Of a stretch of 64,000 bases of DNA, positions 25,293-46,773 are shown in pieces (position 1 is the stretch's first letter; each line of letters opens with the position of its first letter). This stretch comes from Candidatus Woesearchaeota archaeon (GTDB lineage Archaea; Nanobdellota; Nanobdellia; Woesearchaeales; GCA-2686295). Below the pieces are notes generated by a model. The model did no database searches. It saw nothing but the letters and a program-made list of their open reading frames with translations, and was not told where the DNA came from. The stretch lies in NCBI GenBank assembly GCA_937912225.1, contig CALDOJ010000034.1, positions 556-64,555 of the forward strand, read 5' to 3'. A program made the translations under genes and the position numbers.

Positions 25293-26678
25293 TCATTTTA
25301 GAATTGTAAAATCAATATCTGCTTTTTCACAAAAGTCGTGGTGGTTTTTATATAACCAAGTATTAACATTATTATTCTGTTGATTATTAAATAAAATATT
25401 AGAAGTAACTTCTCTTAGCATATCAACTTTTTCTTGGTCGTCTGCGTTTTCAAATTGACTTATGAATTTTGTTGTACTATGATAATTTCTTAATGATTCG
25501 TTCCAAGATAATCTTGGCTGTAATTCATGTATAATTGCATCATCAGTTGATGGATAAACCATGAACTCTGCTAGTTCAGGACTTAAATTTGCAACATATT
25601 GTCTTCTTACATCTGAATTAAGAACTCTTTCAAAATAATTTTTTGATTTGTCTAAGTTGTTTAATAAAGTTTTAAACTCCAGATGATTGCCATTATTAGA
25701 ATCTGCTCCTGCTCTAACTGCTGTTTCATATAATTCATTTAAATTCTTTATTCTTCGTTCTAGAATTGAAGGACTTGCATCATAAAATCCTAAATCGACA
25801 AGTTCGATTAAAGTTTTTTGATGTTCGTTCCCATTAAGAACTTCAAGCTCTTTAGGACTTGCATCAACAAATGGATTCATTCCGAAATAAACAACTGCGT
25901 TCTTTGCTTTTTTTGTTGAATATAAATAAAATAAAGTACTATCTTCAGTTCTTATAACACAAGAATTTGTTGAAGCTGAAAACACTTTTGTATCTGGAAC
26001 TTCATACCTTGATAATGAACCAAGCTTTTTTCGTAGTTTCATTGCTTTAGTTGCTAAATCACTAATTTTACTCGGGTTTAATAACGCATTTTTAGGATTG
26101 GATTTTAATTGTTCTAATAACTCAGTAATTTCTAAGAATTTATCAACTGTTCCTAAAGGAGTGTCTAAGACCATTGATAAATCATAAGCTCCTGTTTTAA
26201 ATTTTTCAGGAAATAAATGTGCTTCAGTTAAATCAAGATTTCCTCTTTTACTAGTAACTGTTCCAACTAAACCTTCATGGATTCCAAAATCTCTAATTAA
26301 TGTTTCACCGCTAGTATAAACATTTTCTATTAAAGGATTTAAATATGATCGAGTACTTGAAATGTGATCTGACATTAACTGTCGTAAAGATAAAAAAATA
26401 ACTTTATTTTCTTTATCAGAATAATCAAATCCGCCTGAAATATCAATTGCTTTTGGCAAATTAGCATCAACTTTTACGTCTAAAATATCTGCTAAATGTT
26501 GTTTCTCATCTCCTTTAACAGAATAAAGAGAAGGCAGTTTTACTGTTAAAGATTTCTGTGGTAATAATGATGAGAATTCTAAAAAATCTTGCTCTAGCTG
26601 ATTAGTATGCATTCCATCGCTGCCTTCAGCTATGGTTTTTAATCGCTGTAATCGCATAAGATCTTTTAATCCTTTCAT
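25293..26678 (-). CDS. Hypothetical protein (461 aa). Last gene of the minus-strand supercluster.
   Basis: Long non-repetitive ORF with a 10-nt gap to the upstream gene. No recognisable family. Confidence 0.6.
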   Translation of the reverse strand: MKGLKDLMRLQRLKTIAEGSDGMHTNQLEQDFLEFSSLLPQKSLTVKLPSLYSVKGDEKQHLADILDVKVDANLPKAIDISGGFDYSDKENKVIFLSLRQLMSDHISSTRSYLNPLIENVYTSGETLIRDFGIHEGLVGTVTSKRGNLDLTEAHLFPEKFKTGAYDLSMVLDTPLGTVDKFLEITELLEQLKSNPKNALLNPSKISDLATKAMKLRKKLGSLSRYEVPDTKVFSASTNSCVIRTEDSTLFYLYSTKKAKNAVVYFGMNPFVDASPKELEVLNGNEHQKTLIELVDLGFYDASPSILERRIKNLNELYETAVRAGADSNNGNHLEFKTLLNNLDKSKNYFERVLNSDVRRQYVANLSPELAEFMVYPSTDDAIIHELQPRLSWNESLRNYHSTTKFISQFENADDQEKVDMLREVTSNILFNNQQNNNVNTWLYKNHHDFCEKADIDFTILK

Positions 26679-26688
26679 GTTTATCTAC

Positions 26689-28431
26689 CTATTTTGATCT
26701 TTTTCCATCTTTTTCAAGATTTTTCAAGAATCTTGTACTAGCATCATTAATTCTTGCTTCTTGAGATGCAGCAGTGATTTCAGTTCTTGTTTGAATATAA
26801 TCATCAAATTTTCCAAGAACAATCTTATAAGTTATATTTTTCAATTGTTCATTTCGATAAGCCATATGTTTATCAAAAGTTGCACCTATTAAAGTATCTG
26901 GAAGATCATAATCACTTCCTAATGATCTTAATACGTGACCAACTTCACGATTGCTTAAAGGAGAATCTAATATGTATTGTCCTATCTCAGCCCATTGTTT
27001 ATCTTTAATTGGAATTTCATCACTTCCTTTAGTAATTGTTCTTCGTGCTAATTCTGCAAAGTCAGTCGGGTCATCAAATCTTTTCATTTCAACAATTTCA
27101 TCAAATAATCTGCTTTGAGTAGCATCATCAATTCCTTCAATATAATTAGCATCCATGATTGACATGAACTTTCCGTTTTTTGGAATCATAGTTCCATCAA
27201 ACATTTTAAAGTAAATTCCTAAAGTGTTCTTCTGTTCAGCTGATAAATTAGGGTCATTTCTTGACTGAAAAATTGTATCTGCATCAGCCACATACATAAC
27301 AACTGCTCCAGGGAATGCTTTAATTTGTTCGCCTAATGCAGCCAATTTATTAGATGTTTGATTTTGATAATGAGATGCGTAATCAGTAATACTGTGTGTC
27401 ATAACCCATAAAGGTAAATTATTTTGTCTACAAAGATCTGCAAAAGACCTTAAGTAACCATGAGAAATAAAAGTTTTCCCACTTCCAGGTCCACCAAATG
27501 TGAATATTGTAGATGCTGGTTTATGAGGATTCATTTGTTTTTCTTGGTCATATGCAGATAATTTTTTCATATTCTCCCAAATAACAGATCCTAATTTTGG
27601 AGAACCGTCAAGATAAGTTCCCTCCCCACCTATTACATCTTCTTTTGTTATTGGCATAATTTTATCATCAATAACTACTTGATTGAACTTTCGACTAAAA
27701 TCGTCTTTTGTTATTGAAAAATTACCATATCGAAGTTTTAAATCACTAACTTTATTTTTAGCAGCTATATCTTCAAAAGATTCCCAACTAAACTGATTTA
27801 CCCACGAAGTAAATACTGCTTGTAATGTGTTTTTTAAATTGTCATCAGTTACTTCTTTTCCTTTATTCTGTTGTTGAGTAATAACTCTTGTCAAATCTTC
27901 TGTTGTCATAGTTGTTAATACAGAAGTTAAAGCATCTCGTTCTTTACTCGTTTCATATCTTGTTCCAAAAGCAAAAGTTTTGTCTATATCTGCTTTGTTT
28001 GTTCCTAATAATGCTAATCCAACATGACCAGCAAAGTTTAAAGCATATCTATTTGAAAAAAGTATTGCATCACTTGTTTGTTTTTCTAATTCATAAGTTG
28101 CTTTAGAAGCACTTTTAGATTGTGTTTCTCTAGCTTCAACAAATCCTTTTTGCGAATCTAATCTTCTTTCAAGTGTTATAACATCCATATCTTTTCTTAA
28201 TTCTAAAGCCGCAGCTCTAAAAACACCAACTGATTTTTCAAATACTTCTAAATAATTTATTTGATCAACAGTGTTTCTTGTACCATTTGATAAAGAGTCG
28301 ACAACTAAAGAATAAAGAGTATTTTCTTTTAGTAATCTTTGAGCAGGTTTTCTAACTCCACTAATTAATTCTTTAACATGATCTTGTTCCGAGATAATTT
28401 TTTCATTTAAATCAATTTCATTATTACTCAT
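26689..28431 (-). CDS. Protein with a C-terminal classical AAA ATPase domain and a novel ~270-aa N-terminal region
   Basis: Walker A FTFGGPGSGKTF, Walker B VVMYVADAD, and IMDANYIEGIDDATQSRLFDEI, which resembles the sensor-1/Arg-finger region of classical AAA proteins. Confidence 0.7.
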   Translation of the reverse strand: MSNNEIDLNEKIISEQDHVKELISGVRKPAQRLLKENTLYSLVVDSLSNGTRNTVDQINYLEVFEKSVGVFRAAALELRKDMDVITLERRLDSQKGFVEARETQSKSASKATYELEKQTSDAILFSNRYALNFAGHVGLALLGTNKADIDKTFAFGTRYETSKERDALTSVLTTMTTEDLTRVITQQQNKGKEVTDDNLKNTLQAVFTSWVNQFSWESFEDIAAKNKVSDLKLRYGNFSITKDDFSRKFNQVVIDDKIMPITKEDVIGGEGTYLDGSPKLGSVIWENMKKLSAYDQEKQMNPHKPASTIFTFGGPGSGKTFISHGYLRSFADLCRQNNLPLWVMTHSITDYASHYQNQTSNKLAALGEQIKAFPGAVVMYVADADTIFQSRNDPNLSAEQKNTLGIYFKMFDGTMIPKNGKFMSIMDANYIEGIDDATQSRLFDEIVEMKRFDDPTDFAELARRTITKGSDEIPIKDKQWAEIGQYILDSPLSNREVGHVLRSLGSDYDLPDTLIGATFDKHMAYRNEQLKNITYKIVLGKFDDYIQTRTEITAASQEARINDASTRFLKNLEKDGKRSK

Positions 28432-28433
28432 TT

Positions 28434-29567
28434 TTATACCTCTATAATTCTTATTTGTGTTCCTAACACTGAATCAGCCACTCTTGAAGAATATTTTGCA
28501 GGAGTTATAATCATTTCATCTCTCCAGTCTTCTCGATATATGACTTGTGCTAGTTCTTTTCCTTTTGTTTTATGATTAGGAGCGTAAGTGTATTGTCTTG
28601 AAAATCTTAAAAATCCTGCTTCCGGGTCTTCTTCTAATAATTCTTTTGTTATTGGTAATTGTGGAATTTCATTCGATCCTGTTTGATATTTTGTTTCAAA
28701 AGGACCTATTAAGGATTTTGATACATGAACTGGATGTAAACTTTCAAAGCCTTCATCTATTTTTTTTAAAACATACCATGCAGCTAAACTATCAGAATTA
28801 AATTTTAGTGCAGATCTTAACTGATTAGTTAATTGATATTCACCATTACTATCTTTTTCAATATGTGTTTCTCTAATATCCTGCCATAAATCTATAGTGT
28901 ATGCTTGAAACATTCCAGATGCTAATGAATAATTTACGAACGAGATATTAAATTGAGTTTCTCCAGCGAATGATTTTAATTTTGTAATTGTAGGTTTCAA
29001 ATCACTTGACTCCCAACCTAATAGAGTTGCATCTTTTAGTTGTTCAAGATAATTTATTCTCATAGCTTGTTTATGAATATCTTCAGCTACTCCGCCCACA
29101 TTTCCAATTTCAACATCATCTTGTAATAATAATCTGTCAAGATTTTGAGCTAATTTTGTAAAAGAAGGTAATTTTTTTAGTTTGTCTGGTGCAGATTTTT
29201 TTAGTTTGTTTAAAGCTATAAAATCGAATTGCCAAGGTAAACCTGACGAAGCGTTTATGTTTGCTTCTTCAAAATACCCTTTATTCTTTGAAGGATCATC
29301 TTTAGAAGTTTGCCAATCTAACCATTGATATTCTTCTCTTACAGTTTGAACCATGTTTGAAAGAGTTTTATAAGTGTTAGTAAACTTTGGTAACCTTTGC
29401 CAATCCCAATCTTTTCTTTTTGCAAAGTCTTCCATAGTTTTGAAATGATCAGCTTCTTTTTCAAAAACTAAATTTTGAGCTAATACGCCTAGAAATTTAT
29501 CTATTTGACTCAAGTAACGTGATTGTTCATCTCCTATTAATTTATGTTCTCTCACAACTCTTGTCAT
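28434..29567 (-). CDS. Hypothetical protein (377 aa)
   Basis: Long ORF with an aggtataaaaatg RBS. Trp-rich. No family. Confidence 0.6.
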   Translation of the reverse strand: MTRVVREHKLIGDEQSRYLSQIDKFLGVLAQNLVFEKEADHFKTMEDFAKRKDWDWQRLPKFTNTYKTLSNMVQTVREEYQWLDWQTSKDDPSKNKGYFEEANINASSGLPWQFDFIALNKLKKSAPDKLKKLPSFTKLAQNLDRLLLQDDVEIGNVGGVAEDIHKQAMRINYLEQLKDATLLGWESSDLKPTITKLKSFAGETQFNISFVNYSLASGMFQAYTIDLWQDIRETHIEKDSNGEYQLTNQLRSALKFNSDSLAAWYVLKKIDEGFESLHPVHVSKSLIGPFETKYQTGSNEIPQLPITKELLEEDPEAGFLRFSRQYTYAPNHKTKGKELAQVIYREDWRDEMIITPAKYSSRVADSVLGTQIRIIEV

Positions 29568-29595
29568 TTTTGCACCTCTTTAAAAATAAATTTAA

Positions 29596-29626
29596 AAAAT
29601 GCTCAGCAGATAATCTGCTGGCATGC
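29596..29626 (-). terminator. Candidate intra-operon terminator or attenuator: a hairpin followed by a T-tract on the minus strand
   Basis: The minus strand reads gccagcagattatctgctgagcattttttaaatttattttt. This is a 6-bp stem (cagcag/ctgctg), a 5-nt loop and a T-run. It lies between the stop of 29667..30896 and the start of 28434..29567. Confidence 0.3.
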
Positions 29627-29666
29627 TCAAAACTAAAAATTTCTGAGCAAAAAATAAAAAATAACT

Positions 29667-30896
29667 TCACTGATGCGTTGCATAGTGAGGTTGTTCTGGA
29701 ATAGCAGATAATCTTTGCTGGTTCTCTGCCCATTCCATCTTTTGATTGTTAAGGTCTTTCATAAAGCCTTGAACTTGTTGAGTTACAGCTTCTGCTTTAT
29801 CAACATCATAGATAGGAGTTTTTAATAAATCAAAAACCTCTGCAGCTAAATGCGTAGTTAAATGTGCATTAGCTTCCATTAACTGTTGTGATTTAGCAGC
29901 AACTTCTACTAAAGTCTTTTTAATATCTAAAGCAGCAACACCGGCTGAAGCAATCTTTCCTTGTATTTTAAATACAGGAACCATATCTTCCATTGCGTGT
30001 TTATATTTAATTTCAAGTTCGCTCATTGAGTCTATCAAAGCATTGATAGCTACATAGTTTGCTTTTGAAGCAGCTGCAGCTCCTTTTGCTGATTGAACTC
30101 CTTCTGCCGAGTCTAATATTTCTCTTCTAATACTAGAAACTACTCCATCTGCAGATAATTTTCCATCCAGAACTCCATATTTCATGTCTAAGACTTGAGT
30201 CATTTCACTTGTCAATCTGTCTACAGATTTCAAATCACTTGATTCTTTTGCTACTTGTATTTGACTTTCATAATCAACAAGAACTGTTTCAATATCTTTT
30301 AGTTCTGTTTGTAATTTCTCAACTTCACTCTTTGCTTGTTCCATATCAGAAGAAGTATATAATCCATTTTTCAGACTATCAATTAATTTTTGATCAAGAG
30401 ATTTCATATGAGCAACATTTTCAACTTGCATTGATTCTGCATTTGCTCTTCCATCAATTGCGTTTTGATATTGGTCTCCTAAGACTTCAGCTATACGATC
30501 AACCATGTATTCTAATGCATCTCCTTTTTTTCCAGCTGCATCAATTTTCATTTGTCTAGCTTTTCCTTTTCGTCCAATAAATTCATTGAATTTAATTCTA
30601 ATACCTTCTCCAGTAGTATATAATTTCTTTGAACCAATTAATGTTTGAAAATTAACATTTAATTTTCCATATGTTTCTGCTAATTCAACCATATCTAGTT
30701 GTAAAGCAGCCATTTCTTTGTGAATAGCACCAGTACTTGTTTGTGTTGAAGAAGGCACTTTACCTAATCTTTTTTTGTCCATTTCTAGTGTTTCTTCTGA
30801 TGCGTCAAACGCTTCATACACTTCTTCTTTAGAAGTTGATTTTTCAACTTTATATTTATCAGTTAGTTCTTCCAATTTTGTTTTTTGTTCACTCAT
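29667..30896 (-). CDS. Long coiled-coil protein (409 aa), all alpha-helical. A TelA- or PspA-like architecture is possible but unproven.
   Basis: Heptad-rich sequence throughout. Strong RBS (aggaggaataaaatg). It has its own promoter-like region upstream. Confidence 0.6.
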   Translation of the reverse strand: MSEQKTKLEELTDKYKVEKSTSKEEVYEAFDASEETLEMDKKRLGKVPSSTQTSTGAIHKEMAALQLDMVELAETYGKLNVNFQTLIGSKKLYTTGEGIRIKFNEFIGRKGKARQMKIDAAGKKGDALEYMVDRIAEVLGDQYQNAIDGRANAESMQVENVAHMKSLDQKLIDSLKNGLYTSSDMEQAKSEVEKLQTELKDIETVLVDYESQIQVAKESSDLKSVDRLTSEMTQVLDMKYGVLDGKLSADGVVSSIRREILDSAEGVQSAKGAAAASKANYVAINALIDSMSELEIKYKHAMEDMVPVFKIQGKIASAGVAALDIKKTLVEVAAKSQQLMEANAHLTTHLAAEVFDLLKTPIYDVDKAEAVTQQVQGFMKDLNNQKMEWAENQQRLSAIPEQPHYATHQ

Positions 30897-30963
30897 TTTA
30901 TTCCTCCTAATATACTCTTTTTTTTATAAAATATCGAAAATATACTCTTTTTTATCACTGCGA

Positions 30964-30990
30964 AGTAGTTATTATATATAAATGTTTCTA
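30964..30990 (-). promoter_or_regulatory. Putative promoter of the 29667..30896 unit, with a TATA box, a BRE-like box and an inverted AGTAGTTA 8-mer
   Basis: The minus strand reads agaaacatttatatataataactacttcg. Two 14-bp direct repeats (aaaaaagagtatat) sit in the downstream 5' leader at about 30905-30960. Confidence 0.35.
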
Positions 30991-32421
30991 TTAAAAGTCT
31001 TTAATATCATATAAACCACCTATTGCACTGCCAACATCCCTGATCATACCGCCCGCGAATTGCCCGTTTGAAACAGGAACAACTTTAGTATCAGGTCCTG
31101 CAGCCATTCCAATTTCTTTAGTTATAGCCCGAGTACTTGAGTTTCCATCAATTAAAAACAATCTAAGCATGATTTCAGGACAATCTCGAAATTTAGAAGC
31201 TGAATTAATAGCTGCTTCAACAGAATCAGGCGCTCCATCACTAATTAAATAAGCAATAGAAGGACCTTTGCCTTGCAATACGTTAAACAACCAATCTAAA
31301 GCTAAATGAGTAGGTGTGCCACCATAAGGATGCACATTCTTCATCAAATCAGCAGTAGAAACAGGCCTAACTGAATCTTGACTATAAACAGATAAATAAA
31401 CATTATTCGAAGGATTTAATTGTCTCATCAAAGAATGATTAGCAAGAACAGTCTTTTGAGCCATAGAAAAACGATCACCCTCCATACTACCACTAAGATC
31501 AAGACTCATAGCAGTATCAATAGATACTTTAGTAGACTCAAAACTCTGCGATTTACCAACAATTAAATAAGGAAATTGAGGCTTTCTATAACCTCTTGTA
31601 CGAGAATAAATAGTAGATTGAACCCAATCAACATCAGATAATTCAGATAAATCTTCCATTTCATCCCAATGATCAACTACACCATCATAAGTTCTTTTTA
31701 AGTTTGACATGAACCCAGAATGACCGTCAGATGTCTCAATACCTTTAACAATTTCATCCAAAAAGATATCTTCTAAAGACTTCACAATTTGTTGCTCATC
31801 AAACTGCAGAACACCAGATTCATTAGATACATATTCAGAACTTTCAATAAAAGTTTTAAGTTTCTCTTTAGCAATTCTTGTAGCATCTGTTTTAATATTA
31901 ACTTCAGATTTTTGATCTTCCAGTTTAGATTCAATATCACCCTTCTTATTCTCAAATTCATCAGCAATGTTTCGAGTTTGTTCTTCTTTTTCAGTTATAC
32001 TCTGTTGATAAGCATCAGAAGCACCAACTAAATAATCATTAGCGCCACGCACAGCATCAGTATTATTAAGCAAAGTTTGTTCTGCTTGACTTAAAGCTAA
32101 AAGTTCATCTGTAAGATTAGCATCATAAACTTCTTGAATACTATCCCTAGTTTCAATTGCATAGGCTTCAATCATTTTATCAGTTTTTTTTGCATACCAA
32201 CCTTTGAAAACTTTTTTTCCAACAGCAAGTCTAAGACGAGCAGAACCAGATAAATCAAGAAAATCATGAACTATTTCACGAAAAACTGTTTCAGATTTAT
32301 AACGATTAGAAAAACGTTCAATAAACTCTTCTAATTGAGGAACTTGAGAAATACCACTAAAAGAACTAACAGGTTCTTGACCTTCATTCACAATTTCATC
32401 TATTTTATCTTCCATTTTCAA
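30991..32421 (-). CDS. Protein with a coiled-coil N-terminus and a C-terminal vWA domain
   Basis: MIDAS LDLSGSM, GGTPTHLALDW and ISDGAPD in the last ~190 aa. The N-terminal ~270 aa is a helical coiled coil. Confidence 0.75.
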   Translation of the reverse strand: MKMEDKIDEIVNEGQEPVSSFSGISQVPQLEEFIERFSNRYKSETVFREIVHDFLDLSGSARLRLAVGKKVFKGWYAKKTDKMIEAYAIETRDSIQEVYDANLTDELLALSQAEQTLLNNTDAVRGANDYLVGASDAYQQSITEKEEQTRNIADEFENKKGDIESKLEDQKSEVNIKTDATRIAKEKLKTFIESSEYVSNESGVLQFDEQQIVKSLEDIFLDEIVKGIETSDGHSGFMSNLKRTYDGVVDHWDEMEDLSELSDVDWVQSTIYSRTRGYRKPQFPYLIVGKSQSFESTKVSIDTAMSLDLSGSMEGDRFSMAQKTVLANHSLMRQLNPSNNVYLSVYSQDSVRPVSTADLMKNVHPYGGTPTHLALDWLFNVLQGKGPSIAYLISDGAPDSVEAAINSASKFRDCPEIMLRLFLIDGNSSTRAITKEIGMAAGPDTKVVPVSNGQFAGGMIRDVGSAIGGLYDIKDF

Positions 32422-33227
32422 AATAATTTATAATTAAGTACTTTCCAGACTTTTCTACCAAATCGATAAATAGGCCCGTCTTTTTGTTCAGTAGCAGTTT
32501 TTCGTTGCCAAAAATGTTTCTTCTCAACTAAAGTATCAAGAGTTTCACCTTCTAAAGGATCAATCTCCCCTTTAACAGTTGCAAGATCTAAAGCTCTTTG
32601 AATATTAGAACTCCCATAATAAGCAAAACTTTGATCTGCATAAGCAGGATCCATACTGGAAACATCAAGATGACTTACACGTTTCTTTCGTTTAGCTTTT
32701 TTCTTTTCAGGACCTGAATAACCATCTTGTAAAGCATCATTAATTCTCATAAGTTTTTCATAAGCTTCACGACCGCCAACTGCTTGTAATTTCTCTTCAA
32801 TTCTCGCCCTCATTTCATTAAGACGAGCTTGAGCAGCAGTATACGCTTTATTTGATGAATCAACTTTAGAATCGGCGTCTCTTTTAGCTCTTTCTTTATC
32901 AGCAACTTCTTTACCAAGAGTTTGTTCAATTTCAAAAAGAACTTGTTCTTTTTCAAATTCTTCTGCAGCAATAGCTTTTTTTTGTTGATAATCAAGCTTA
33001 TCAAGTGCAGCATCTTTTTGAAACTCAAGATTCTCAGCGATTTGTTCAGATAACTGTTCAATAATACTATAATCATTAAGAATCGCATCAACAGCATTTG
33101 TTGCAGAAGAGCCATTCTTCCAAGCATCAACCATTGCACGCTTAATAACTTCGTCTATATTAGAAAAATCAATAGGCGGAATACGAAATAATGCACAATC
33201 CGCTAACCTATAATCGCTAAGTCTCAT
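32418..33227 (-). CDS. Coiled-coil protein (269 aa) with a basic patch
   Basis: Helical with a KKKAKRKKR stretch. It overlaps the next gene by 4 bp. The Lys/Leu-rich ORF inside it in another frame is spurious. Confidence 0.55.
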   Translation of the reverse strand: MRLSDYRLADCALFRIPPIDFSNIDEVIKRAMVDAWKNGSSATNAVDAILNDYSIIEQLSEQIAENLEFQKDAALDKLDYQQKKAIAAEEFEKEQVLFEIEQTLGKEVADKERAKRDADSKVDSSNKAYTAAQARLNEMRARIEEKLQAVGGREAYEKLMRINDALQDGYSGPEKKKAKRKKRVSHLDVSSMDPAYADQSFAYYGSSNIQRALDLATVKGEIDPLEGETLDTLVEKKHFWQRKTATEQKDGPIYRFGRKVWKVLNYKLF

Positions 33228-33237
33228 TGTTCAGAGA

Positions 33238-35676: not shown

Positions 35677-35698
35677 TTAAGTGATAATAAATTGGGTC

Positions 35699-36835: not shown

Positions 36836-36836
36836 T

Positions 36837-37037: not shown

Positions 37038-37070
37038 TTTTTATTTAATAATTCGTTTCAATATATAAAG

Positions 37071-38605: not shown

Positions 38606-39399
38606 CGAGAAACCCCCAAATAAAGTTTCATATGAGTAAAAGGATCATCTAAAATATAATCATCCTCTTCAGAACACATTTTCTTAGAAAAATAATTAAC
38701 CATTGATTCAATCTCAGGTTGATATTTTAAAAAATTATTACGAATAAGTTTATAGCCATCAATTGTTCCTTCAGAAACAGCATCTTCATCTAAATGAAAC
38801 CATTTAATATGGTAATCTCCTTGAAATAAATCCTTATGATAAAATAAACAATCATTATCAAGATGTCGAACAGCTCCTTTTTCAGATACTAGTATGTTTC
38901 CAGCATGTCGATCATCTAATGCTAAAGTTCTAGCCAATTCTAAAGCAATGCCAAAAGAATAACTAATTTCAGTTTTTAGAGTTTCAGGAAAACCCAATCT
39001 AGAACCTCGCAGTTGATCAATAACAATCATTCTTTCAGGAGTTGAATCATCTAAAGAATCTGAATAAAGAAATTTTTGTTCTTCACCAAGTAATAAATTC
39101 TGTAAAGTTATGCCAACCGCTTCAAACAAAGGATGAGATTTTGGTTCTTTTGCAAAGAAAGTTTCTGAACGTCCATTTTCAAGCAAGATATTAAAACCTG
39201 TAATAGTAGTATAAATCTCCTTTAACATAGCAATACCAAAACTTTTAATTGAAGCTATTTCATCAACTGAAACACCATATAAATCTGATGCAACTTTCTT
39301 TTGAAGAGCTAAATCCTCATGAAAAGTTTTAAGACTGGGAAGAGCAACTTCATAACTAAACAATTCTTTTACAGTATCAGAAAGTTCAGGCAAACTCAT
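38602..39399 (-). CDS. PI3/PI4-kinase-like atypical kinase-fold protein, group A paralog 4. Its DFG position is degenerate.
   Basis: TFFAKEP, LDDRHAGNILV and HLDNDCLF, which has no DFG. Confidence 0.7.
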   Translation of the reverse strand: MSLPELSDTVKELFSYEVALPSLKTFHEDLALQKKVASDLYGVSVDEIASIKSFGIAMLKEIYTTITGFNILLENGRSETFFAKEPKSHPLFEAVGITLQNLLLGEEQKFLYSDSLDDSTPERMIVIDQLRGSRLGFPETLKTEISYSFGIALELARTLALDDRHAGNILVSEKGAVRHLDNDCLFYHKDLFQGDYHIKWFHLDEDAVSEGTIDGYKLIRNNFLKYQPEIESMVNYFSKKMCSEEDDYILDDPFTHMKLYLGVSR

Positions 39400-40148
39400 C
39401 GCTTAACCCCCAGATAATCACACATGTAAGCAAACGGATCATTCAAAACATCAGGTCTTGAAGCAAAAGGTATTTGTTCATCAACCCAATCAACAACCAT
39501 TTTAATATCATCTTTATTATCAATAAATCGTTGACGAATAGCTTCATGAGCTGAAAGTCTTCCTTTGTTAAATTTACGACGACTTAAACCATAAGCATCT
39601 GCAACTTTCGCACCAGTTATCAAATCTTTTTCATCAAATAAACATTCATAATCAATATGTCTGATAGTTCCTCTCCCATCAACTAATAAGTTTCCAGTAT
39701 TTCTATCTTTTAAATGCAAAACCATTTCTAATTCTGAAGCCACACCAAGATTAAAACTGGCTCTTTTCTTACGACCTACATTTTTAAAAATTCTTCCAGG
39801 AATCGCTTCCATCAAAATAGAACTAGGATCTGTTGTATAATCATCAAGTTGAGGAATTGCATAACTCCAATTCTCACCAGTTAAAACATTGTTCAAATAC
39901 CAACCAAGTCCTTCTAATAAAGAACCTGTATGAAAACAATCTTTAACATAAAAAGTCTTATTAGAACCATCACCCAAAGTTAATTCATAACCTTTAATCA
40001 TTTCTTGATTAGTAATTAAACTACTAGAAACAATTTTTTCATCAATACCAAATAAAGCTTTAGGAACATCAGCCATTCTTTTCTCAGAATATACATCATA
40101 AAAAGAAGGAACATCTCCAATCCGAAGTAATTTTTCAGGCGAAGTCAA
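39396..40148 (-). CDS. PI3/PI4-kinase-like atypical kinase-fold protein, group A paralog 3
   Basis: TFYVKD, LKDRNTGNLLV and HIDYECLF. Confidence 0.7.
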   Translation of the reverse strand: MTSPEKLLRIGDVPSFYDVYSEKRMADVPKALFGIDEKIVSSSLITNQEMIKGYELTLGDGSNKTFYVKDCFHTGSLLEGLGWYLNNVLTGENWSYAIPQLDDYTTDPSSILMEAIPGRIFKNVGRKKRASFNLGVASELEMVLHLKDRNTGNLLVDGRGTIRHIDYECLFDEKDLITGAKVADAYGLSRRKFNKGRLSAHEAIRQRFIDNKDDIKMVVDWVDEQIPFASRPDVLNDPFAYMCDYLGVKR

Positions 40149-40936
40149 TTTATTTCACCCTCTAATTTTTGTTTTATATAATCAAAAGGAGAAATAGTTT
40201 CAAACAATTCAGATCTTAATAAACCATCATAAGCCCAGTTAGCCAAATCGCGAATTAGTTCTTCATTAGTTTTGAAATTAACTCTCATCTCTTCACGAGC
40301 ATCAAGTCTGCCTTTTTCAAATTCCTCTTCAGAATAACCACTATTCTTAACTAATTGTTTACCAGTTCGATCATCCCAACCAGCCCAAAATAATGCTCCA
40401 AAATCTATATTACGAATTACTAAGTTATCATCAATTAACATATTAGGACTTCTTCGATCAGCAAGATTTAAAATTTTGGCAGATTCAAAAGCCCGACCCA
40501 TTGAATAAGAAATTTCAGTTAAGAAATCATAATTAACATTAAAAGTTGTTCCAGGAACTTCATCCATAATAACCACATTAATAAAATTATCAAGCAAATC
40601 CAATTTATTAACTAACATCAAGAAATTTCTGTCTTCACCAGTTAATAGATTATTCAAAGTAATACCAACTGCTTCTTGAAACGCACCAGTCACATAGCAA
40701 TCTTCTTCTTCTTTAACATAATAAGTTTTAGAAGTTCCATCTTTAAGCATTAATTTATGACCTGCAACGTTCGAATTTCCAGATGCAAAAGGTTCATCAA
40801 TAAGAATATCGTCTGAATCAACCCCATACATTTCTCTAGCAACATATCTGCCTAAATTTTGAGAATCAAGAAGAGTAACTTCATCAGTAAAAGGCCTATA
40901 ATTCAACAAGTCTTTCATTCTATCTGGAAAACTCAT
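40145..40936 (-). CDS. PI3/PI4-kinase-like atypical kinase-fold protein, group A paralog 2
   Basis: TYYVKE, LADRRSPNMLI and IDFGALF. Confidence 0.7.
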   Translation of the reverse strand: MSFPDRMKDLLNYRPFTDEVTLLDSQNLGRYVAREMYGVDSDDILIDEPFASGNSNVAGHKLMLKDGTSKTYYVKEEEDCYVTGAFQEAVGITLNNLLTGEDRNFLMLVNKLDLLDNFINVVIMDEVPGTTFNVNYDFLTEISYSMGRAFESAKILNLADRRSPNMLIDDNLVIRNIDFGALFWAGWDDRTGKQLVKNSGYSEEEFEKGRLDAREEMRVNFKTNEELIRDLANWAYDGLLRSELFETISPFDYIKQKLEGEIN

Positions 40937-41736
40937 TTCTCAGCCTCCAAATAAAGTTTCATATAAGAAAAAGGATCTTCAATATGCTTTTCATCATCCA
41001 AATATTGCAAACCAGATTGTTCGCTAAAATATGTTAATACATCTTTAATTAATGATTCATTATCTAAAAAATTTTTAACAATTATTTTTCTTGCATCTGA
41101 TTGTCCTTGTGAAACTAATTCTGCATCAAGTCCCAGAACATATCCTCCTTTAAAAATATCTTTTAACATTCCAAGATTCCAAGAATATTCTTTATTAAAA
41201 ATAGTTTCATAATCAACATTTCTAATAATAGAATTTTCACAAATAACCAAATTTGAATTATTACGGTCGGTTAAAGAAAGAGTTTTAGCCAATTCTAAAC
41301 TAGCACCAAAACTTTGACTCATATTAGTACTAGCATCATTAAAATATGTCACACTAGTTCCAATATCTTCCATAGCAACATAACCAAATTTCCAATCACC
41401 AGTTTCAGATCTGCTAGCAACAAAGTTATGGTTTTCACCTAAAAGAATATTGCTTAAAGTCCAACCAACAGCTTCACTTAAAGAACTTTCAAGACATTTC
41501 TTATAATAAAATTGTTTAATTAAACCATCCTTAAAAAGAGTTTCATATACTCGAGTGTTAGGAGACCAAACAGTATCTAAGAAATTAACAGTTATAATTT
41601 CTGATTCAGGAACACCATAAAGTGAACTTGCAACAGACTCCATAATATCAGGATTATTTTTAACTTTTGAAAAATCTGGAAGAGAGGTTAACCTAAGTAA
41701 ATCTTCAATCTTTGTTTGAGTTGATTGTTTAGTCAT
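40933..41736 (-). CDS. PI3/PI4-kinase-like atypical kinase-fold protein, group A paralog 1
   Basis: QFYYKK, LTDRNNSNLVI and VDYETIF. Confidence 0.7.
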   Translation of the reverse strand: MTKQSTQTKIEDLLRLTSLPDFSKVKNNPDIMESVASSLYGVPESEIITVNFLDTVWSPNTRVYETLFKDGLIKQFYYKKCLESSLSEAVGWTLSNILLGENHNFVASRSETGDWKFGYVAMEDIGTSVTYFNDASTNMSQSFGASLELAKTLSLTDRNNSNLVICENSIIRNVDYETIFNKEYSWNLGMLKDIFKGGYVLGLDAELVSQGQSDARKIIVKNFLDNESLIKDVLTYFSEQSGLQYLDDEKHIEDPFSYMKLYLEAEK

Positions 41737-42224
41737 TTTATTCGACGATATTCAAAAACATTTTTTTTTAAGTATAATTGCATATGACTTGGTAAATGTT
41801 CACCAATCTGATTTATTGCATCAGGCGATTGGTTATGAATAAGTAAACTATGTAAAGCTTCAACAGGAATATTTTGAAATGAAATAAATTCTCTAAAATA
41901 ATCAGTCGATTTTCTATAAGGATTTCTTTCAATACCTAACTCCTGAGCAAATTTTTCAGCCATAGATTCATAACCCGAATATTTGAACAATTCACTATTT
42001 TCTTTAATATAATTATTATCAAGAACGAATCCAGTACTACCACCCCAAAAATCTACATTTGCTTTTTTTGGCATTGGAAATTTTTCTTCCCAATAAGCAA
42101 AACAAATTCTATCATTAGATGATTCAAAATAATTTTTATTACCTGTTTCAGAAGGTAATCTTAAACCTTCACTAAGTATAGGAAGGACAGATATCACTTC
42201 AGTCATATGTGTCAATATCGGCAT
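41733..42224 (-). CDS. Small paralog family member 3 (~163 aa, unknown domain)
   Basis: Alignment with its two paralogs places the true start at MPILTHMTEV, 1 nt after the upstream stop. Conserved motifs are THxT, LPSETGN, DRI(C/S)F, NIPVE(A/G) and a C-terminal HMQLYL...YRRIK. Confidence 0.6.
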   Translation of the reverse strand: MPILTHMTEVISVLPILSEGLRLPSETGNKNYFESSNDRICFAYWEEKFPMPKKANVDFWGGSTGFVLDNNYIKENSELFKYSGYESMAEKFAQELGIERNPYRKSTDYFREFISFQNIPVEALHSLLIHNQSPDAINQIGEHLPSHMQLYLKKNVFEYRRIK

Positions 42225-42225
42225 T

Positions 42226-42750
42226 TTATTTAATCCTCCGATAAAATGAGTCATCAGTTTGTTTAGTATATAATCCCATATGTGCTGGCAAAATTGATTT
42301 AATTTTTTGAAATTCTTCTGTCTCAAGAGATAATATTGTATTAAATCTAGAATCTAAAAATAAACTGTGAATTCCTTCTACAGGAATATTTTCAAAAGAT
42401 ACTACTTCATTAAAATTAAATCTTGGAACTTCTAAGTCTATAACTTCCATTCCTTGTCTATTTGCATAATCAATTACTTCTTCACTCTTAGTAATATAAC
42501 ATTTGAATTCGTCTTTATTTTCAGATATGTACTTTGGGTCTAAAACTAAATTAATGTCATTATTCCAACCGCTTAAATAAGTATTTTCGCTTTCTAAATC
42601 TAAATCAGGATTACATGAAAAACTTATTCTATCTGTAGGAAAAAACCAATCCCAATTACTATTACCTGTTTCTCGTGGTTTTTTAATCCCATTTTTAAAA
42701 ATAGGTTCTAGATATTCCAGATAAGTTGAATGTGATAAAACTCCGTTCAT
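42226..42750 (-). CDS. Small paralog family member 2 (174 aa, unknown domain)
   Basis: KPRETGNSNW, DRISF, NIPVEG, AHMGLY...FYRRIK. Confidence 0.6.
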   Translation of the reverse strand: MNGVLSHSTYLEYLEPIFKNGIKKPRETGNSNWDWFFPTDRISFSCNPDLDLESENTYLSGWNNDINLVLDPKYISENKDEFKCYITKSEEVIDYANRQGMEVIDLEVPRFNFNEVVSFENIPVEGIHSLFLDSRFNTILSLETEEFQKIKSILPAHMGLYTKQTDDSFYRRIK

Positions 42751-43256
42751 TTCATCCTCCGATAAAATAAATCATCTGTTTGTTTTGAATATAATCGAAT
42801 ATGAGCAGGTGCTTGTTTTTGAATTTCATTAATTTCAGATTTTGAATCTGATTGGTGAAATAATGCATATAATCCTTCAACAGGAATATTTGCAAATGAA
42901 ACTACTTCATTAGGAACTTCATGTTTGGTTGGATTTTTAATAGTCCTAATTCCAAGTTCTTTGATAAATGTTTGAAAAATATCTTCACGCGCAGGTTCTG
43001 CTTCAAAATTATTCAAATTATCTTTTAAGTAATCAGGATCGACAAAGAATCCAGTTCTTTCTCCATACCAAAAATCATTAAAACCAATACTTGTTTTTGG
43101 AAAAGGTGTTTCTTCAGGATGAAGTAAAAAGCTTATTCTATCACTCGCAGAATACTCTGGCCAATTACAATTACCAGTTTCAGAAGGTAATTTTAATCCT
43201 TCTTTAAGTATTAAAGGCACATATACATTCCGTGTTGCATGAGTTAGAATTGTCAT
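42747..43256 (-). CDS. Small paralog family member 1 (~170 aa, unknown domain)
   Basis: The true start is probably MTILTHATRN. LPSETGNCNW, DRISF, NIPVEG, AHIRLY...FYRRMK. Confidence 0.6.
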   Translation of the reverse strand: MTILTHATRNVYVPLILKEGLKLPSETGNCNWPEYSASDRISFLLHPEETPFPKTSIGFNDFWYGERTGFFVDPDYLKDNLNNFEAEPAREDIFQTFIKELGIRTIKNPTKHEVPNEVVSFANIPVEGLYALFHQSDSKSEINEIQKQAPAHIRLYSKQTDDLFYRRMK

Positions 43257-43257
43257 T

Positions 43258-44160
43258 TTATTCTCGCAACACCTCGGCCTTTGATGAATTTGTATAAGAA
43301 TGAATACTATTATGAGGATCGTAATCGAAGTTAGCACCTCTATGAACTGCATAATTAAGAAGCTCTTGAATTAAACCTTGATTAATGGCAATATTTTTAG
43401 CAATTAGTTCTCTGCCAAATAACTTACCAGCTTCAAATTGTTCTTCTTCACAATCTGAAAGCGTAATATCATAACATGGATCAACTTGTAAGCCTACTTC
43501 TTCACAAAAAATTGTGCTAAAATCAATAGGCACAATAGTTTCATCATCACCTAAAATAATATTCTCATCATGTCTATCATCTAAACCTAAAGCAGTTGAT
43601 AGTTCTGAAGCAACACCATAATTAAAAGATTCTTTATCTGAAAAAATATAACCCCTTTCCATATTTGCAAAAGTTTTCCCAGGAATTCCAACTGATAAAA
43701 AAGTTCCAGTTTCTTCACAAGCAGCAAATCTATAAGTTTCAGTTTCATTATCTGAAGATAAAATATCTCCAAGAACACTTCCTAAAGCATCTACTATAAT
43801 CGGCCTTTGCCAAGCAGGTTTAGCATAAAAATCGCTCTTTGTACCATCTTTAAATTCTACAAGAAAACGAGCATAGAAATCACAATCTTCATAAAAAAAA
43901 TTAGAATCTTTTTCAATTGAAACAACTGATTCTGGTTCACAAGAATATAAAGAAGCAGCAACATCAACCATGTCTGCAGTTCCTGAAACTATATTAATAA
44001 TATGTGGTAAATCTTTCAAGCTTAACATTGAACGTAAATAATTTTCAGGTAAATCACCATTCCAAACAGTTTCAGGTTTATGATAAGCTAAAGGTAAACG
44101 TTCATATTCTTCTAAATAACTTGACAGGTCTGAATTGTTTGAATTTTGTGTGTTAGTCAT
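43258..44160 (-). CDS. PI3/PI4-kinase-like atypical kinase-fold protein, group B paralog 3
   Basis: SDFYAKP, LGLDDRHDENIIL and PIDFSTIF. The start is probably MTNTQNS. Confidence 0.7.
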   Translation of the reverse strand: MTNTQNSNNSDLSSYLEEYERLPLAYHKPETVWNGDLPENYLRSMLSLKDLPHIINIVSGTADMVDVAASLYSCEPESVVSIEKDSNFFYEDCDFYARFLVEFKDGTKSDFYAKPAWQRPIIVDALGSVLGDILSSDNETETYRFAACEETGTFLSVGIPGKTFANMERGYIFSDKESFNYGVASELSTALGLDDRHDENIILGDDETIVPIDFSTIFCEEVGLQVDPCYDITLSDCEEEQFEAGKLFGRELIAKNIAINQGLIQELLNYAVHRGANFDYDPHNSIHSYTNSSKAEVLRE

Positions 44161-44161
44161 T

Positions 44162-45652
44162 TTATTCTTGCATTGACCTCCTGTGCGCACTAACATAAGA
44201 ATCTATACTTTCTTCAGGTTTATGAGTAAAAGATGCGTTTTTATGATGTGCATAAGCAATCAACTGATGTATTACGCCTTTATTTTGTTCATAATTCTTC
44301 GTAATCATTTCTAATCCCATTTGTCTTCCTGCTTTAACCATTTCTGCATTAGCAGGTTCTTCATGACTACAAGAATATTCACTAGTTGAAGAAGTACGAA
44401 ACAAAGTTCCAAAATCAATAGGAATAACCATATCATCATCTGCAATCATAATATTTTGATCGTGCCGATCAGTTAATCCTAAAGCTCTTGATAATTCTAT
44501 TGCAACTCCATAATTAAATGCTGCTTGATCTGAAAAATCTTCTCCCTTATGTTTAAAGGTCGTAGCAGAAATTCCAGTTGAAGCACAAGTTTTATTTTCT
44601 TCGCAACCTATAAATGAGTAAGTAGTTTTTGGAAGATGACCTTTAGTTAGAATATAAGCTAAAGTATTACCAAGTGTTTCAGAAACTACTGATCCTTCCC
44701 AATTTTTTTTAAGATAAAAATCACTTTTCACACCATTTTTAAAATCTATAAAAAAATGATTAACAGTACCATAACCAAATTTTCTATCTTTCTTAATTGA
44801 TTTAATAGATTTAATATCACAAGAATATAATTTTGCAGCAATTTCTTTACGCTGTTTATAAGTTCCCATACCAACACTATAATAAAATCCAACATCAGCA
44901 GATATATCAGGCAAATCAACTAAACCCAATATTTCTCGAAGAACTTCTTCAGAAGTTTCACCAGTCCATACAGGATCAGGTATTGACTCTGGTTCTGGTT
45001 TAGGTTCAGGTAATTTAATTTCAACAGGATCAGGCCTATCAACAACCATTCCAATATTTTGCAAAGGAACTTCTTCTTTAGGTAACTTAAGTATAGCGCC
45101 TAAATCATAAGGATTTTGAAATCCAAATATATTAAGAAAACCATAAGGCTTATTAACATGATAAGGATTAACTGCAGGTTCTTGTTCTTTTCCTGCAATA
45201 ATATCTTCAAGTAAAAGAGGATTATCAACCACATATCTAATTTGTTTTTCATTTTGTTCTTGTTTATTATTCATACCGTGCAAGAATTTTTTATCTTTTT
45301 CTCGCAGACCACCATAAGGTTGAATCTTTGGGTTTACCAAAAGCTCCATATTTCTAATAAAACCAAAATCATAATTAATAAGTTCAACTTTTTCTTTCTT
45401 GGGTTGTTTATGCACAAGCTTTTCTTTACGATCAACAGGAGCAAAATCTAAAAGAGGATCAACTAAATCTTGTTGAAGATAATTTATGGCATTATCAGGA
45501 TTAATACCACCCATTGCATACATCATAGCGCCAGCCAAAGGTAACATCATATTTCTGGCTCTATTTAGTCCTCGATGTTCTGCATTTTCATTAGACTTTT
45601 TTTTAGGAGAGTTATGAGATTCTTTGTTTAATCTTTGTTTAAGTATCATCAT
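44162..45652 (-). CDS. PI3/PI4-kinase-like atypical kinase-fold protein, group B paralog 2, with a ~200-aa basic or low-complexity N-terminal extension
   Basis: SDFYLKK, LGLTDRHDQNIMI and IPIDFGTLF. Confidence 0.7.
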   Translation of the reverse strand: MMILKQRLNKESHNSPKKKSNENAEHRGLNRARNMMLPLAGAMMYAMGGINPDNAINYLQQDLVDPLLDFAPVDRKEKLVHKQPKKEKVELINYDFGFIRNMELLVNPKIQPYGGLREKDKKFLHGMNNKQEQNEKQIRYVVDNPLLLEDIIAGKEQEPAVNPYHVNKPYGFLNIFGFQNPYDLGAILKLPKEEVPLQNIGMVVDRPDPVEIKLPEPKPEPESIPDPVWTGETSEEVLREILGLVDLPDISADVGFYYSVGMGTYKQRKEIAAKLYSCDIKSIKSIKKDRKFGYGTVNHFFIDFKNGVKSDFYLKKNWEGSVVSETLGNTLAYILTKGHLPKTTYSFIGCEENKTCASTGISATTFKHKGEDFSDQAAFNYGVAIELSRALGLTDRHDQNIMIADDDMVIPIDFGTLFRTSSTSEYSCSHEEPANAEMVKAGRQMGLEMITKNYEQNKGVIHQLIAYAHHKNASFTHKPEESIDSYVSAHRRSMQE

Positions 45653-46773
45653 TGCACCTCTTTTTCTAAACTAGAACTCTTAACATTAGTAGCATAAGAA
45701 CTAAGAACAGTTTCGGGTTTTTCTGAAAAATCTGCACCAAGATGTTGAGCATAAGATATAAGTTCAGATATTAAGCCTTTATGTCGTTCATAATTACTTG
45801 CAATTACTTCTCTGGCTTTTAATTTACCTTCTTCAATTAAATCAGTATTTGTTGGTTTAACCGCACCAAAATCATGATACCGTTCATAATTAGGAGGATT
45901 TTCAGGACCAAATATAGTATCAAAATCGATTTGTACAACAACATCATCAGATCTTAAAAGAGTATTAAGATCGTGTCTATCACGCAGGCCTAAAGCAAGC
46001 GATAATTCTACTGCCATGCCATAACTTAAAGTTGCTTTATCAGAAAACTCTTCAGGTTTAACATCTTTAAACATCTTACCTTCAATTCCAACTGATGCAA
46101 AAGTTCCTGTTTCTTCACATGCTGCAGATTGATATGTGTCTTTAAGAGTTTCATCTCCTAAAAGATTCAATAAAGCATTTCCTAAAGCATCCACGATTAC
46201 TGGTGCATTCCAGGAAGGTTTTACATAGAAATCACTTTCAGTTCCATCATCAAACTTGACTAAAAAACGGCCGTAATTATTTCTGTTTGAAAAATTAAAA
46301 TTTCCATCTTGAACAATGGAAACAACTTCATCAGGTTTACATCCATATACGGTTGAAGCGAGTTCTACCAAATCAGTTTCGCCTGAAACAATTTCTCTAC
46401 TATCAGGCAAATTAACTAAACCTAATAATCCTTGTAATTTTTCTTCAGGAATACTTCCAATCCAAGTAGCAGGATGTTTATTAGATTTAAGAGGATTACG
46501 AGAAGAATACTTCTGTATTGTGTTTCTATGTTTTAAATTTTCATCAAAATATTCTAAATATAATTCTAAATTTTCAAAAGTTAATCGATTATCAATAGCC
46601 CTAACTATTTCAGAATGATATTGAGCCATTAATTGATCTTTATCAGTATGTACTTCTTCGTCAGAAAAATCATCTTCAGGAGAAAGTATACTCAGACGTT
46701 CTAAAGCAGGATCTACATAAGGTAAAAACAATTCAACTGGATTATAACATTCAAATAAATTGGCTTTAAGCAT
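45649..46773 (-). CDS. PI3/PI4-kinase-like atypical kinase-fold protein, group B paralog 1. First gene of the array.
   Basis: SDFYVKP, LGLRDRHDLNTLL and QIDFDTIF. Confidence 0.7.
   Translation of the reverse strand: MLKANLFECYNPVELFLPYVDPALERLSILSPEDDFSDEEVHTDKDQLMAQYHSEIVRAIDNRLTFENLELYLEYFDENLKHRNTIQKYSSRNPLKSNKHPATWIGSIPEEKLQGLLGLVNLPDSREIVSGETDLVELASTVYGCKPDEVVSIVQDGNFNFSNRNNYGRFLVKFDDGTESDFYVKPSWNAPVIVDALGNALLNLLGDETLKDTYQSAACEETGTFASVGIEGKMFKDVKPEEFSDKATLSYGMAVELSLALGLRDRHDLNTLLRSDDVVVQIDFDTIFGPENPPNYERYHDFGAVKPTNTDLIEEGKLKAREVIASNYERHKGLISELISYAQHLGADFSEKPETVLSSYATNVKSSSLEKEVQ

Follow-up and report, generated by a model that had tools for sequence, protein, structure and literature searches.

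We analyzed a 64,000-nucleotide stretch of DNA from Candidatus Woesearchaeota archaeon (hereafter, the window), in which positions 25293 to 46773 of the minus strand are occupied by a largely undescribed block of genes. Open reading frames (ORFs), numbered g01 to g22, follow one another without interruption on this strand from 46773 to 25293 and comprise 21 credible genes and one doubtful 63-amino-acid ORF, g19, distributed over three units (unit 1, 46773-35699; unit 2, 35532-30991; unit 3, 30896-25293), each preceded by a promoter. An initial annotation of the window had described the block as about 22 consecutive same-strand genes in three promoter-delimited units, with no recognizable housekeeping function, and our gene calls and family searches bear this out. 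g19 (29542-29733, minus strand) is probably spurious, because it extends over the end of g18, is situated in a terminator-like spacer after that gene, and is absent from the gene calls of the public contigs that carry the region. These public contigs are 99.8-100% identical to the window, showing that the block is a real genome segment that has been assembled repeatedly. The initial annotation also treated the block as one system of about 21.5 kb, and this proposal is not supported, since only seven downstream genes travel together in other genomes. Judged by comparison with those genomes, the block appears to be a composite of a conserved seven-gene part A (25293-35532) and a lineage-specific part B (35699-46773). 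Island hallmarks, which the annotation had suggested looking for, were not seen: the guanine-plus-cytosine (GC) content of the block (0.30-0.34) is like that of its flanks, with no compositional anomaly, and the block contains no tRNA gene and no match to Rfam.

Part A, to which we refer as the module, consists of g15, g16, g17, g18, g20, g21, and g22 (25293-35532, minus strand), arranged as two sub-operons. A homology search with g15 identified 46 proteins, all of them full length and 38-51% identical to the query, and those with organism names all come from Woesearchaeota, Pacearchaeota, or Nanoarchaeota. These organisms are in line with the earlier view that the window derives from a reduced, possibly symbiotic archaeal genome, which is here of the DPANN type. 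Module loci were fetched from 13 GTDB genomes and 15 metagenome contigs, together with the two closest relatives (~50% identity); the 28 genome and metagenome loci correspond to about 26 distinct others, L026 being a duplicate of L010 and L039 lying outside the hidden Markov model (HMM) set. Synteny in related genomes, proposed in the initial annotation as a check on its single system, was found in these ~26 distinct DPANN loci for the seven downstream genes and in none of them, the closest relatives included, for the 14 genes upstream. Wherever the flanking sequence is long enough, g15-g16-g17 are accompanied by g18-g20-g21-g22 in essentially all loci, and only the arrangement of the two sub-operons varies, being tandem in the window, swapped in L013, L019, and L039, and divergent in L011. 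No further conserved gene emerged when the flanks of the 13 genome loci were compared all against all. The host genomes span 31-62% GC, and module proteins are 34-52% identical across them; this wide GC range, combined with the stable composition of the module, suggests long residence in these lineages and argues against recent transfer. Complete modules are also present in L011, L013, and L016, loci of 50-62% GC whose records are titled "uncultured Methanosarcinales archaeon"; either this label is a placeholder or the module extends past DPANN. Literature searches found no description of the seven-gene module.

The seven module families are mutually unrelated, as judged by hhalign, and their proteins show nothing beyond generic AAA and vWA matches in Pfam, NCBIfam, PADLOC, and viral families. 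None of the seven has a transmembrane (TM) segment or a signal sequence. Internal duplication among them was also sought with hhalign and rejected, apart from a 37-residue stretch common to g15 (residues 608-644) and g21 (residues 533-569). It aligns at 60% hhalign probability (E = 9e-5), lies C-terminal to the AAA domain in both proteins, and may represent a docking helix that they share.

The first sub-operon begins with g15 (33238-35532, minus strand), which encodes a 764-amino-acid AAA+ ATPase of the ChlI/MoxR/MCM/PrkA kind. The protein scores above the cut-off for the Pfam families Mg_chelatase, AAA_5, and AAA, and Mg_chelatase is matched by 16 of 17 g15 homologues. Among solved structures the best match is ChlI (1g8p, E = 7e-9) and not MoxR proper, with MCM and PrkA also matched. 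The residues expected of the MoxR/ChlI clade in both Walker motifs, the sensor, and the arginine finger are all intact, with invariant G300, G303, and K306 in Walker A, invariant E444 in Walker B (DE(M)D), and invariant N485 and R497. Between the two Walker motifs, four invariant cysteines form a Cys4 insert, and the ATPase core is extended by an N-terminal region of ~290 residues, with an SH3-like match in two homologues, and by a C-terminal extension of ~250 residues. The ~115-nucleotide leader of g15 (35533-35647, minus strand) contains a small hairpin (GGAAAGCAGAGCTTTCTGG) and a 31-codon upstream ORF (MFKIYYFLGG...), the end of which, ATGCTTGA, overlaps the start codon of g15. g15 is followed by g16 (32418-33227, minus strand), encoding a helical, coiled-coil-like protein of 269 amino acids that lies between g15 and g17 in all relatives, and by g17 (30991-32415, minus strand), whose product combines a helical N-terminal half with a C-terminal vWA domain bearing a metal-ion-dependent adhesion site (MIDAS). 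The DxSGS MIDAS motif of g17 (D308, S310, G311, S312, and M313) is invariant in 10 sequences and is accompanied by a weak match to a vWA structure (5a8j, E = 0.004), although no Pfam vWA family matches g17 at E <= 0.01.

The second sub-operon starts in all relatives with g18 (29667-30896, minus strand), which encodes a helical protein of 409 amino acids. Like g16, g18 is long, helical, and poor in proline and glycine, and neither matches any family. Long oligo-T directly follows the g18 stop codon in the window and in most relatives inspected (L010, L014, L019, L020, L021, L024, L038, and L039). Because oligo-T is the archaeal termination signal, its recurrence at this position likely marks an attenuator or terminator, and it suggests that g18 may be made in excess over g20 to g22. 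In the window the spacer after g18 (29568-29666, minus strand) contains two hairpins besides the oligo-T runs and folds with a minimum free energy of -27.7 kcal/mol (z = -4.0). A conserved RNA hairpin at this position was considered and rejected, since the oligo-T runs are conserved and the hairpins are not. L008 (1993-2808) and L023 (6658-7509) carry an additional, shorter g18-like paralogue directly upstream of g18, and L039 has at the same position a gene for a 238-amino-acid protein (1519-2235) that does not match g18.

Three genes complete the second sub-operon. g20 (28434-29567, minus strand) encodes a conserved globular protein of 377 amino acids in which an HPVH motif and numerous acidic and aromatic residues are invariant, and g22 (25293-26678, minus strand), the last gene of the module, encodes a conserved globular protein of 461 amino acids; neither has a relative in Pfam, NCBIfam, or the PDB, even when every family member is scanned. 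Between them, g21 (26689-28431, minus strand) encodes a 580-amino-acid protein with a C-terminal AAA domain of the classical clade, the nearest solved relatives of which are Msp1/ATAD1, VAT, and Cdc48 (~1e-6). The N-terminal ~280 residues of g21 are conserved and have no assigned domain. The two different AAA-type ATPases anticipated in the block are therefore g15 and g21.

We compared the module with the MoxR-vWA pairs RavA-ViaA, NorQ-NorD, CbbQ-CbbO, and CoxD-CoxE and with the Mg-chelatase subunits BchI/ChlI-BchD/ChlD. As in those pairs, a ChlI/MoxR-type AAA+ protein with intact Walker motifs is encoded beside a vWA/MIDAS gene. Unlike them, g15 is a 764-amino-acid protein with a ~290-residue N-terminal region, the Cys4 insert, and an extended C terminus; none of the known clients (NorB, RuBisCO, LdcI, ChlH, or CO dehydrogenase) is linked to it, the module genes, which match no known client themselves, being the only ones conserved in the 13 genome-locus flanks; and four more conserved genes, including one for a second ATPase of the classical clade, are obligatorily linked. 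Mg chelatase itself does not fit, since g17 is not an AAA+-vWA fusion (its N-terminal half is helical and has no AAA match, unlike the AAA+ N-terminal half of ChlD) and there is no BchH-like gene; the BchD-ChlD model of NCBIfam scores 21.6 bits on g15 against a cut-off of 499. By analogy, then, the module is predicted to work like a MoxR-vWA system while belonging to no described subfamily. The module also resembles the vWA-MoxR NTP-dependent conflict systems (Kaur, Burroughs, Iyer, Aravind 2020) in combining a MoxR-like ATPase with vWA and coiled-coil proteins, and one g15 homologue has a faint bpMoxR match. It differs from them in having no recognizable beta-propeller, effector, or trigger domain and no PADLOC match, and in a seven-gene composition that is conserved across diverse DPANN instead of being patchy and variable.

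Part B (35699-46773, minus strand) covers ~11 kb and 14 genes and was syntenic nowhere among the loci examined. Nine of its genes encode paralogous mini-kinases, 24-52% identical to one another. Three are of a long form: g01 (45649-46773), of 374 amino acids, with a core of the PI3/PI4/actin-fragmin type in its C-terminal ~270 residues; g02 (44162-45652), of 496/495 amino acids; and g03 (43258-44196), of 312 amino acids. The other six, g07 to g12 (37071-41736), are tandem short forms of 250-267 amino acids whose start and stop codons overlap. The residues that define catalysis in the PF00454 superfamily are invariant in all nine paralogues, namely, the ATP-anchoring lysine (K79), the DRxxxN loop (D157, R158, and N162), and the metal-binding aspartate (D175); the K, DRxxxN, and D(F/Y) elements are conserved in six of six short forms, and the lysine and the two aspartates remain invariant across 52 family members. 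With a PF00454 cut-off of 27.1 bits, g02 reaches 29.5 and g01, g03, g09, and g10 reach 19-21, so that eight of the nine paralogues fall below the gathering score, and g07, g08, g11, and g12 have no match at E <= 0.01. A profile of the nine sequences does match PI4KA in the PDB (1e-6), with the catalytic-loop region aligned, and an AlphaFold (AF2) model built from the 52-sequence alignment is confident (predicted local distance difference test [pLDDT] score, 93; predicted template modeling score, 0.92) and has the bilobal fold of PI3K, PI4K, and actin-fragmin kinase (AFK). The atypical kinases noted in the initial annotation are thus confirmed as members of this fold, and by their residues all nine are predicted to be catalytically intact.

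The family was compared with the PF00454 PI3/PI4 kinases, AFK, CtkA, CotH, HipA, and MavQ. Unlike PI3/PI4 kinases, the mini-kinase is reduced to ~250 amino acids, without helical (PIK), C2, FAT, or other accessory domains. AFK, the PIKKs, CtkA, and HipA are protein kinases of the same fold as PI3/PI4 kinases, so the fold does not fix whether the substrate is a lipid or a protein. The family, found in archaea/DPANN, is very rare. A word-indexed profile search with the nine kinases as the query returned three proteins, and 1.84 billion representative proteins searched exhaustively with an HMM yielded 110 hits at E <= 1e-3; two ~250-amino-acid homologues carry a source name, "archaeon" and "Candidatus Woesearchaeota archaeon." The kinase alignments are too divergent for scanning loci. 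Three other DPANN genomes carry the kinase in single copy and in unrelated contexts, with topoisomerase, ribosomal, and prefoldin genes in L034/35, an inositol-monophosphatase-family gene in L036, and unknown genes in L037, and a second kinase-family match or a match to g04 to g06, g14, or the module is lacking from all of these loci. A nine-gene tandem array was not seen in any of the three. A neighbor-joining tree places g07 to g12 in one clade with the orthologue P0067 (60% identity) and g01 to g03 in another, which implies two local tandem expansions from two ancestral copies. In L036 (8746-10765), the mini-kinase has a precomputed PF00454 match (E <= 1e-5) and is divergent from the adjacent PF00459 gene, an arrangement that hints at an inositol or lipid connection of the family. 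The mini-kinase profile also matches six to eight stretches (E, 1e-14 to 1e-17) in giant bacterial proteins, P0099 (5071 amino acids) and P0105/P0177 (~4800 amino acids, Candidatus Auribacterota).

Between the two kinase arrays lie three paralogous genes for proteins of ~165 amino acids that the initial annotation had missed as members of the ADP-ribosyltransferase (ART) fold: g04 (42747-43256, minus strand), g05 (42226-42750, minus strand), and g06 (41733-42224, minus strand). The long ORFs of g04 and g06 begin too far upstream, the true starts being MTILTH in g04 (169 amino acids) and MPILTH in g06 (163 amino acids). Their motifs ILTHxT...EGL... and NEVVSFxNIPVE resemble PARP/DarT strands, and H7, R41, and E115, mapped by eye to DarT-like motif positions, are invariant in the three paralogues; the catalytic residues of the superfamily are H...E in DarT and R-H-R-R in Tpt1. 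The best structural profile match is DarT1 (E = 0.098), and no Pfam or NCBIfam family matches. We accept for g04 to g06 an ART fold of the Tpt1/DarT-like kind, with a putative catalytic role. Unlike the RNA 2'-phosphotransferase Tpt1/KptA, they lack an RNA-binding lobe, and unlike the DNA ADP-ribosyltransferase DarT, they have no adjacent macrodomain (DarG-like) antitoxin, the nearest ADP-ribosylglycohydrolase (23210-24268) being ~18 kb away.

The remaining genes of part B are g13 (36837-37037, minus strand), which encodes a 66-amino-acid peptide with one hydrophobic, TM-like segment, and g14 (35699-36835, minus strand), both as described in the initial annotation. The C-terminal half of the g14 product resembles a nucleosidase or phosphorylase of the PNP_UDP_1 family, scoring 27.9 bits against PF01048 (cut-off, 25.1 bits) over residues 223-335, and it also passes the gathering score of DUF6909 (PF21850), on which literature searches found nothing relevant. 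Unlike full PNP_UDP_1 proteins, g14 covers only positions 72-191 of the 233 in the profile and carries an N-terminal region of ~190 residues with no assigned domain; it has no sequence relative in the PDB. Genes with a nicotinamide adenine dinucleotide (NAD)/ADP-ribose theme occur in the window at 4591-5280, 7785-11344, 18869-19922, and 23210-25278 and include those for an NrtR-type Nudix regulator, nadB-nadA-nadC, a Nudix hydrolase, and a cytidylyltransferase-like (NMNAT-type) protein, and an ADP-ribosylglycohydrolase gene (23210-24268, E = 8e-55) and an NAD-kinase-like gene converge on the 3' end of the block. That this NAD theme accompanies three ART-fold proteins and a PNP-like nucleosidase may be more than coincidence. 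At the other end of the block, 46920-48983 encodes an unknown repeat protein and a radical-SAM/HhH protein.

A near-identical TFB recognition element (BRE)/TATA box precedes each of the three units. The 14-mer GAAACATTTAWATA occurs four times in the 64 kb, against 0.35 expected, and three of these copies lie exactly at the unit heads (46812, 35648, and 30975). The initial annotation had noted a motif common to the unit promoters and the grpE promoter, and the sharing is nonrandom: AGTAGTTA has nine copies in the window, against 2.5 expected, of which four are intergenic, although intergenic DNA makes up 5.2% of the window. Among the 23 intergenic regions of at least 40 nucleotides, the motif is limited to the three unit promoters and the grpE promoter and is absent from the other 19. 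It is moreover part of a composite motif, TCACT-N4-AGTAGTTA, that is larger than originally recognized and that is exact at the promoters of units 2 and 3 (P2 and P3) and has one mismatch at that of unit 1 (P1). At P1 (46812-46848, minus strand), TTACT-ATAA-AGTAGTTA (46832-46848) is followed after 6 nucleotides by the BRE/TATA cGAAACATTTAAATA. At P2 (35648-35687, minus strand), TTATCACT-TAAT-AGTAGTTA (35668-35684) lies upstream of the BRE, 5 nucleotides from the BRE/TATA cGAAACATTTATATA. At P3 (30952-30988, minus strand), the BRE/TATA GAAACATTTATATA comes first and the composite motif follows the TATA box in inverted orientation, as TAACTACT-TCGC-AGTGATAA (30955-30971), so that the inversion reported earlier for the 8-mer extends to the whole composite motif. 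Outside the block, the grpE promoter (2068-2120, minus strand) carries the near-palindrome TAACTCCT-GCAC-AGTAGTTA, matching in 7 of 8 positions, 18 nucleotides upstream of the BRE/TATA CGAAAGCTTTATATA. grpE (1544-2005, minus strand) and a partial dnaK (3 to ~1500, minus strand) stand at the start of the window, apart from the block. The occurrence of AGTAGTTA and the composite motif at the three units and grpE supports a shared regulator, and these sequence statistics also speak for a probable co-regulation of units 1 to 3 and for their connection with grpE-dnaK.

Several observations on these promoters stand beside this result. The BRE/TATA 14-mer of units 2 and 3 recurs without change (GAAACATTTATATA at 2127) at the gene divergent from grpE (2163-2834, plus strand), which encodes a lipoprotein-like secreted protein of no family. 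A role of AGTAGTTA as the NrtR site of the nearby NAD genes was ruled out, since the motif is absent upstream of nadB and nrtR. In relatives, both sub-operon promoters have a common extended BRE/TATA core in L016, L020, and L038, which is consistent with coordinated expression of the sub-operons. L024 has a perfect CTACT-N4-AGTAG downstream of the TATA box, L038 has TAACTACT downstream of the TATA box, as at P3 of the window, and L039 has GTAGTA-N5-TACTAC near the module promoter.

The reading that we favor, with a confidence that stops a little short of even, is that the block joins a stress-linked protein-remodeling module (part A) to a set of modifying enzymes, dependent on ATP and NAD, that has expanded in this lineage (part B), with one regulator over both. 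Part A would be a DPANN-restricted cytoplasmic machine. In the manner of known MoxR-vWA pairs, which bind to a client protein or assembly and remodel it, g15 would work with the MIDAS/vWA adaptor g17 and the helical partner g16, the latter two coupling the ATPase to its putative client. g18 would serve as a scaffold or client, probably made in excess, given the conserved oligo-T attenuator that follows it, and g21, with g20 and g22, would assemble, extract, or disassemble the g18 scaffold or a g18-bound client. As both sub-operons carry an operator that is also found at grpE-dnaK, the module is most likely a remodeling machine linked to stress or proteostasis, presumably induced under such conditions. 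Part B, comprising the nine kinases, three ART-fold proteins, TM peptide, and nucleosidase, would be expressed from a copy of the module promoter, and its enzymes would probably phosphorylate or ADP-ribosylate diversified targets, self or host, under the same conditions as the module, with or without a physical link between the two parts. Several points weigh against this reading. The Walker B motif of g21 is D-A-D and not D-E, and without the canonical glutamate the protein may hydrolyze ATP poorly. g16, g18, g20, and g22 have no detectable homology to characterized proteins, so their proposed roles are guesses, and the AF2 model of the ART proteins, from a three-sequence alignment, is of low confidence (pLDDT 55). 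The link to stress is drawn from one motif in one genome. Relatives have near their module promoters CTACT/AGTAG elements that are loosely similar only (L024, ~2690-2787; L038, ~6640-6718; L039, ~2255-2361; L008, ~1826-1935; L006, ~60-185), and the three- to fourfold enrichment of these elements, measured against a mostly coding background, is a lead rather than a result. Finally, the module was sought in genomes and metagenomes by one or two narrow peptide patterns, and no more than 8000 candidates were scored in the protein search. grpE or dnaK was found in none of the fetched relative loci.

The initial annotation placed the block among defense and Ter/stress-type conflict systems. If all ~21 genes formed one such system, sensing or regulation would fall to the AAA+ and vWA proteins and the effector role to the kinases, ARTs, and nucleosidase, and kinases, ARTs, PNP nucleosidases, AAA+ proteins, and vWA proteins are indeed common in conflict systems; the genes also share a strand, and a 13-base composite motif is common to the three promoters. 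We consider this very improbable, because the 14 upstream genes are not found beside the module in the other loci, even in the closest relatives, the kinase occurs alone and in housekeeping contexts elsewhere, and neither island signals nor a fitting defense, Ter/TelA, or phage-family model was found. A scan of PADLOC-DB 2.0 with ten representative proteins gave weak matches to the AAA regions of g15 and g21 only (E of 1e-4 or weaker), and no Pfam or NCBIfam model of TerD, TerC, TelA, or the TerY type matches any cluster protein at E <= 0.01. Viral origin was likewise rejected, as searches of IMG/VR for g14, the ART family, and g21 turned up no relatives and PHROGs gives generic AAA matches only. 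A narrower version, in which the module is an antiviral or anti-mobile-element MoxR-vWA conflict system with g20 and g22 as unrecognized effectors, draws on the MoxR/ChlI-like AAA+, vWA, and coiled-coil architecture, on the variable genomic neighbors, and on the globular proteins with invariant polar residues and no family. It seems distinctly unlikely for a single-copy, stable set of seven families, 34-52% identical among hosts of 31-62% GC, with an operator in common with grpE-dnaK; no defense model beyond generic AAA matches, the module was not found on viral contigs, and it has no recognizable effector domain.

The stoichiometry suggested for g18 bears on another reading, in which the module would build or remodel a cytoskeletal, membrane-associated, or cell-cell contact structure, with g18 as the filament and g21 as a disassembly ATPase of the Vps4/Msp1-like kind. 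The length and helicity of g18 and its conserved oligo-T attenuator, which suggest high stoichiometry, the membrane-protein extractases and unfoldases among the nearest solved relatives of g21, and the restriction of the module to DPANN lineages would all fit, and if true, this reading would bear on how DPANN cells live as episymbionts. It is nonetheless unlikely, since Snf7, PspA, MIT, and other cytoskeletal families have no match on g18 or g21, so that ESCRT-III/Vps4 fits the classical-clade AAA domain of g21 as an analogy only, and since TM and signal sequences are lacking in the seven proteins and no secretion or pilus genes are linked. A host-interaction effector repertoire, the other idea of the initial annotation, would concern the upstream half of the block only. 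Part B would then consist of effectors delivered into a host, for example, lipid kinases acting on host inositol lipids and ARTs acting on host nucleic acids or proteins; this we regard as doubtful, in view of the lack of signal peptides, TM anchors, and secretion-system genes and of the occurrence of homologues in other DPANN as single genes in housekeeping neighborhoods.

DPANN archaea are mostly uncultured, and their gene content is largely dark matter. The novelty of the block is real and is built from known superfamilies. Because its composition is kept across 31-62% GC, the module is a strong candidate for a lineage-defining machine and a target for structural and biochemical work, and the palindromic operator in common with grpE-dnaK defines a directly testable regulon. 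In the kinase array, a fold otherwise familiar chiefly from large lipid and protein kinases of eukaryotes is available in minimal form, and together with the three DarT/Tpt1-like proteins and the NAD genes, the array suggests that ADP-ribosylation and atypical phosphorylation have a greater role in DPANN biology than has been recognized. In a bolder and very improbable version of these ideas, the module would be an undescribed DPANN-specific two-ATPase machine, part of a heat shock or contact stress regulon, that in this lineage has recruited a rapidly duplicating arsenal of minimal kinases and ARTs modifying host lipids, nucleic acids, or proteins during episymbiosis; if true, it would be an archaeal counterpart of bacterial effector repertoires.

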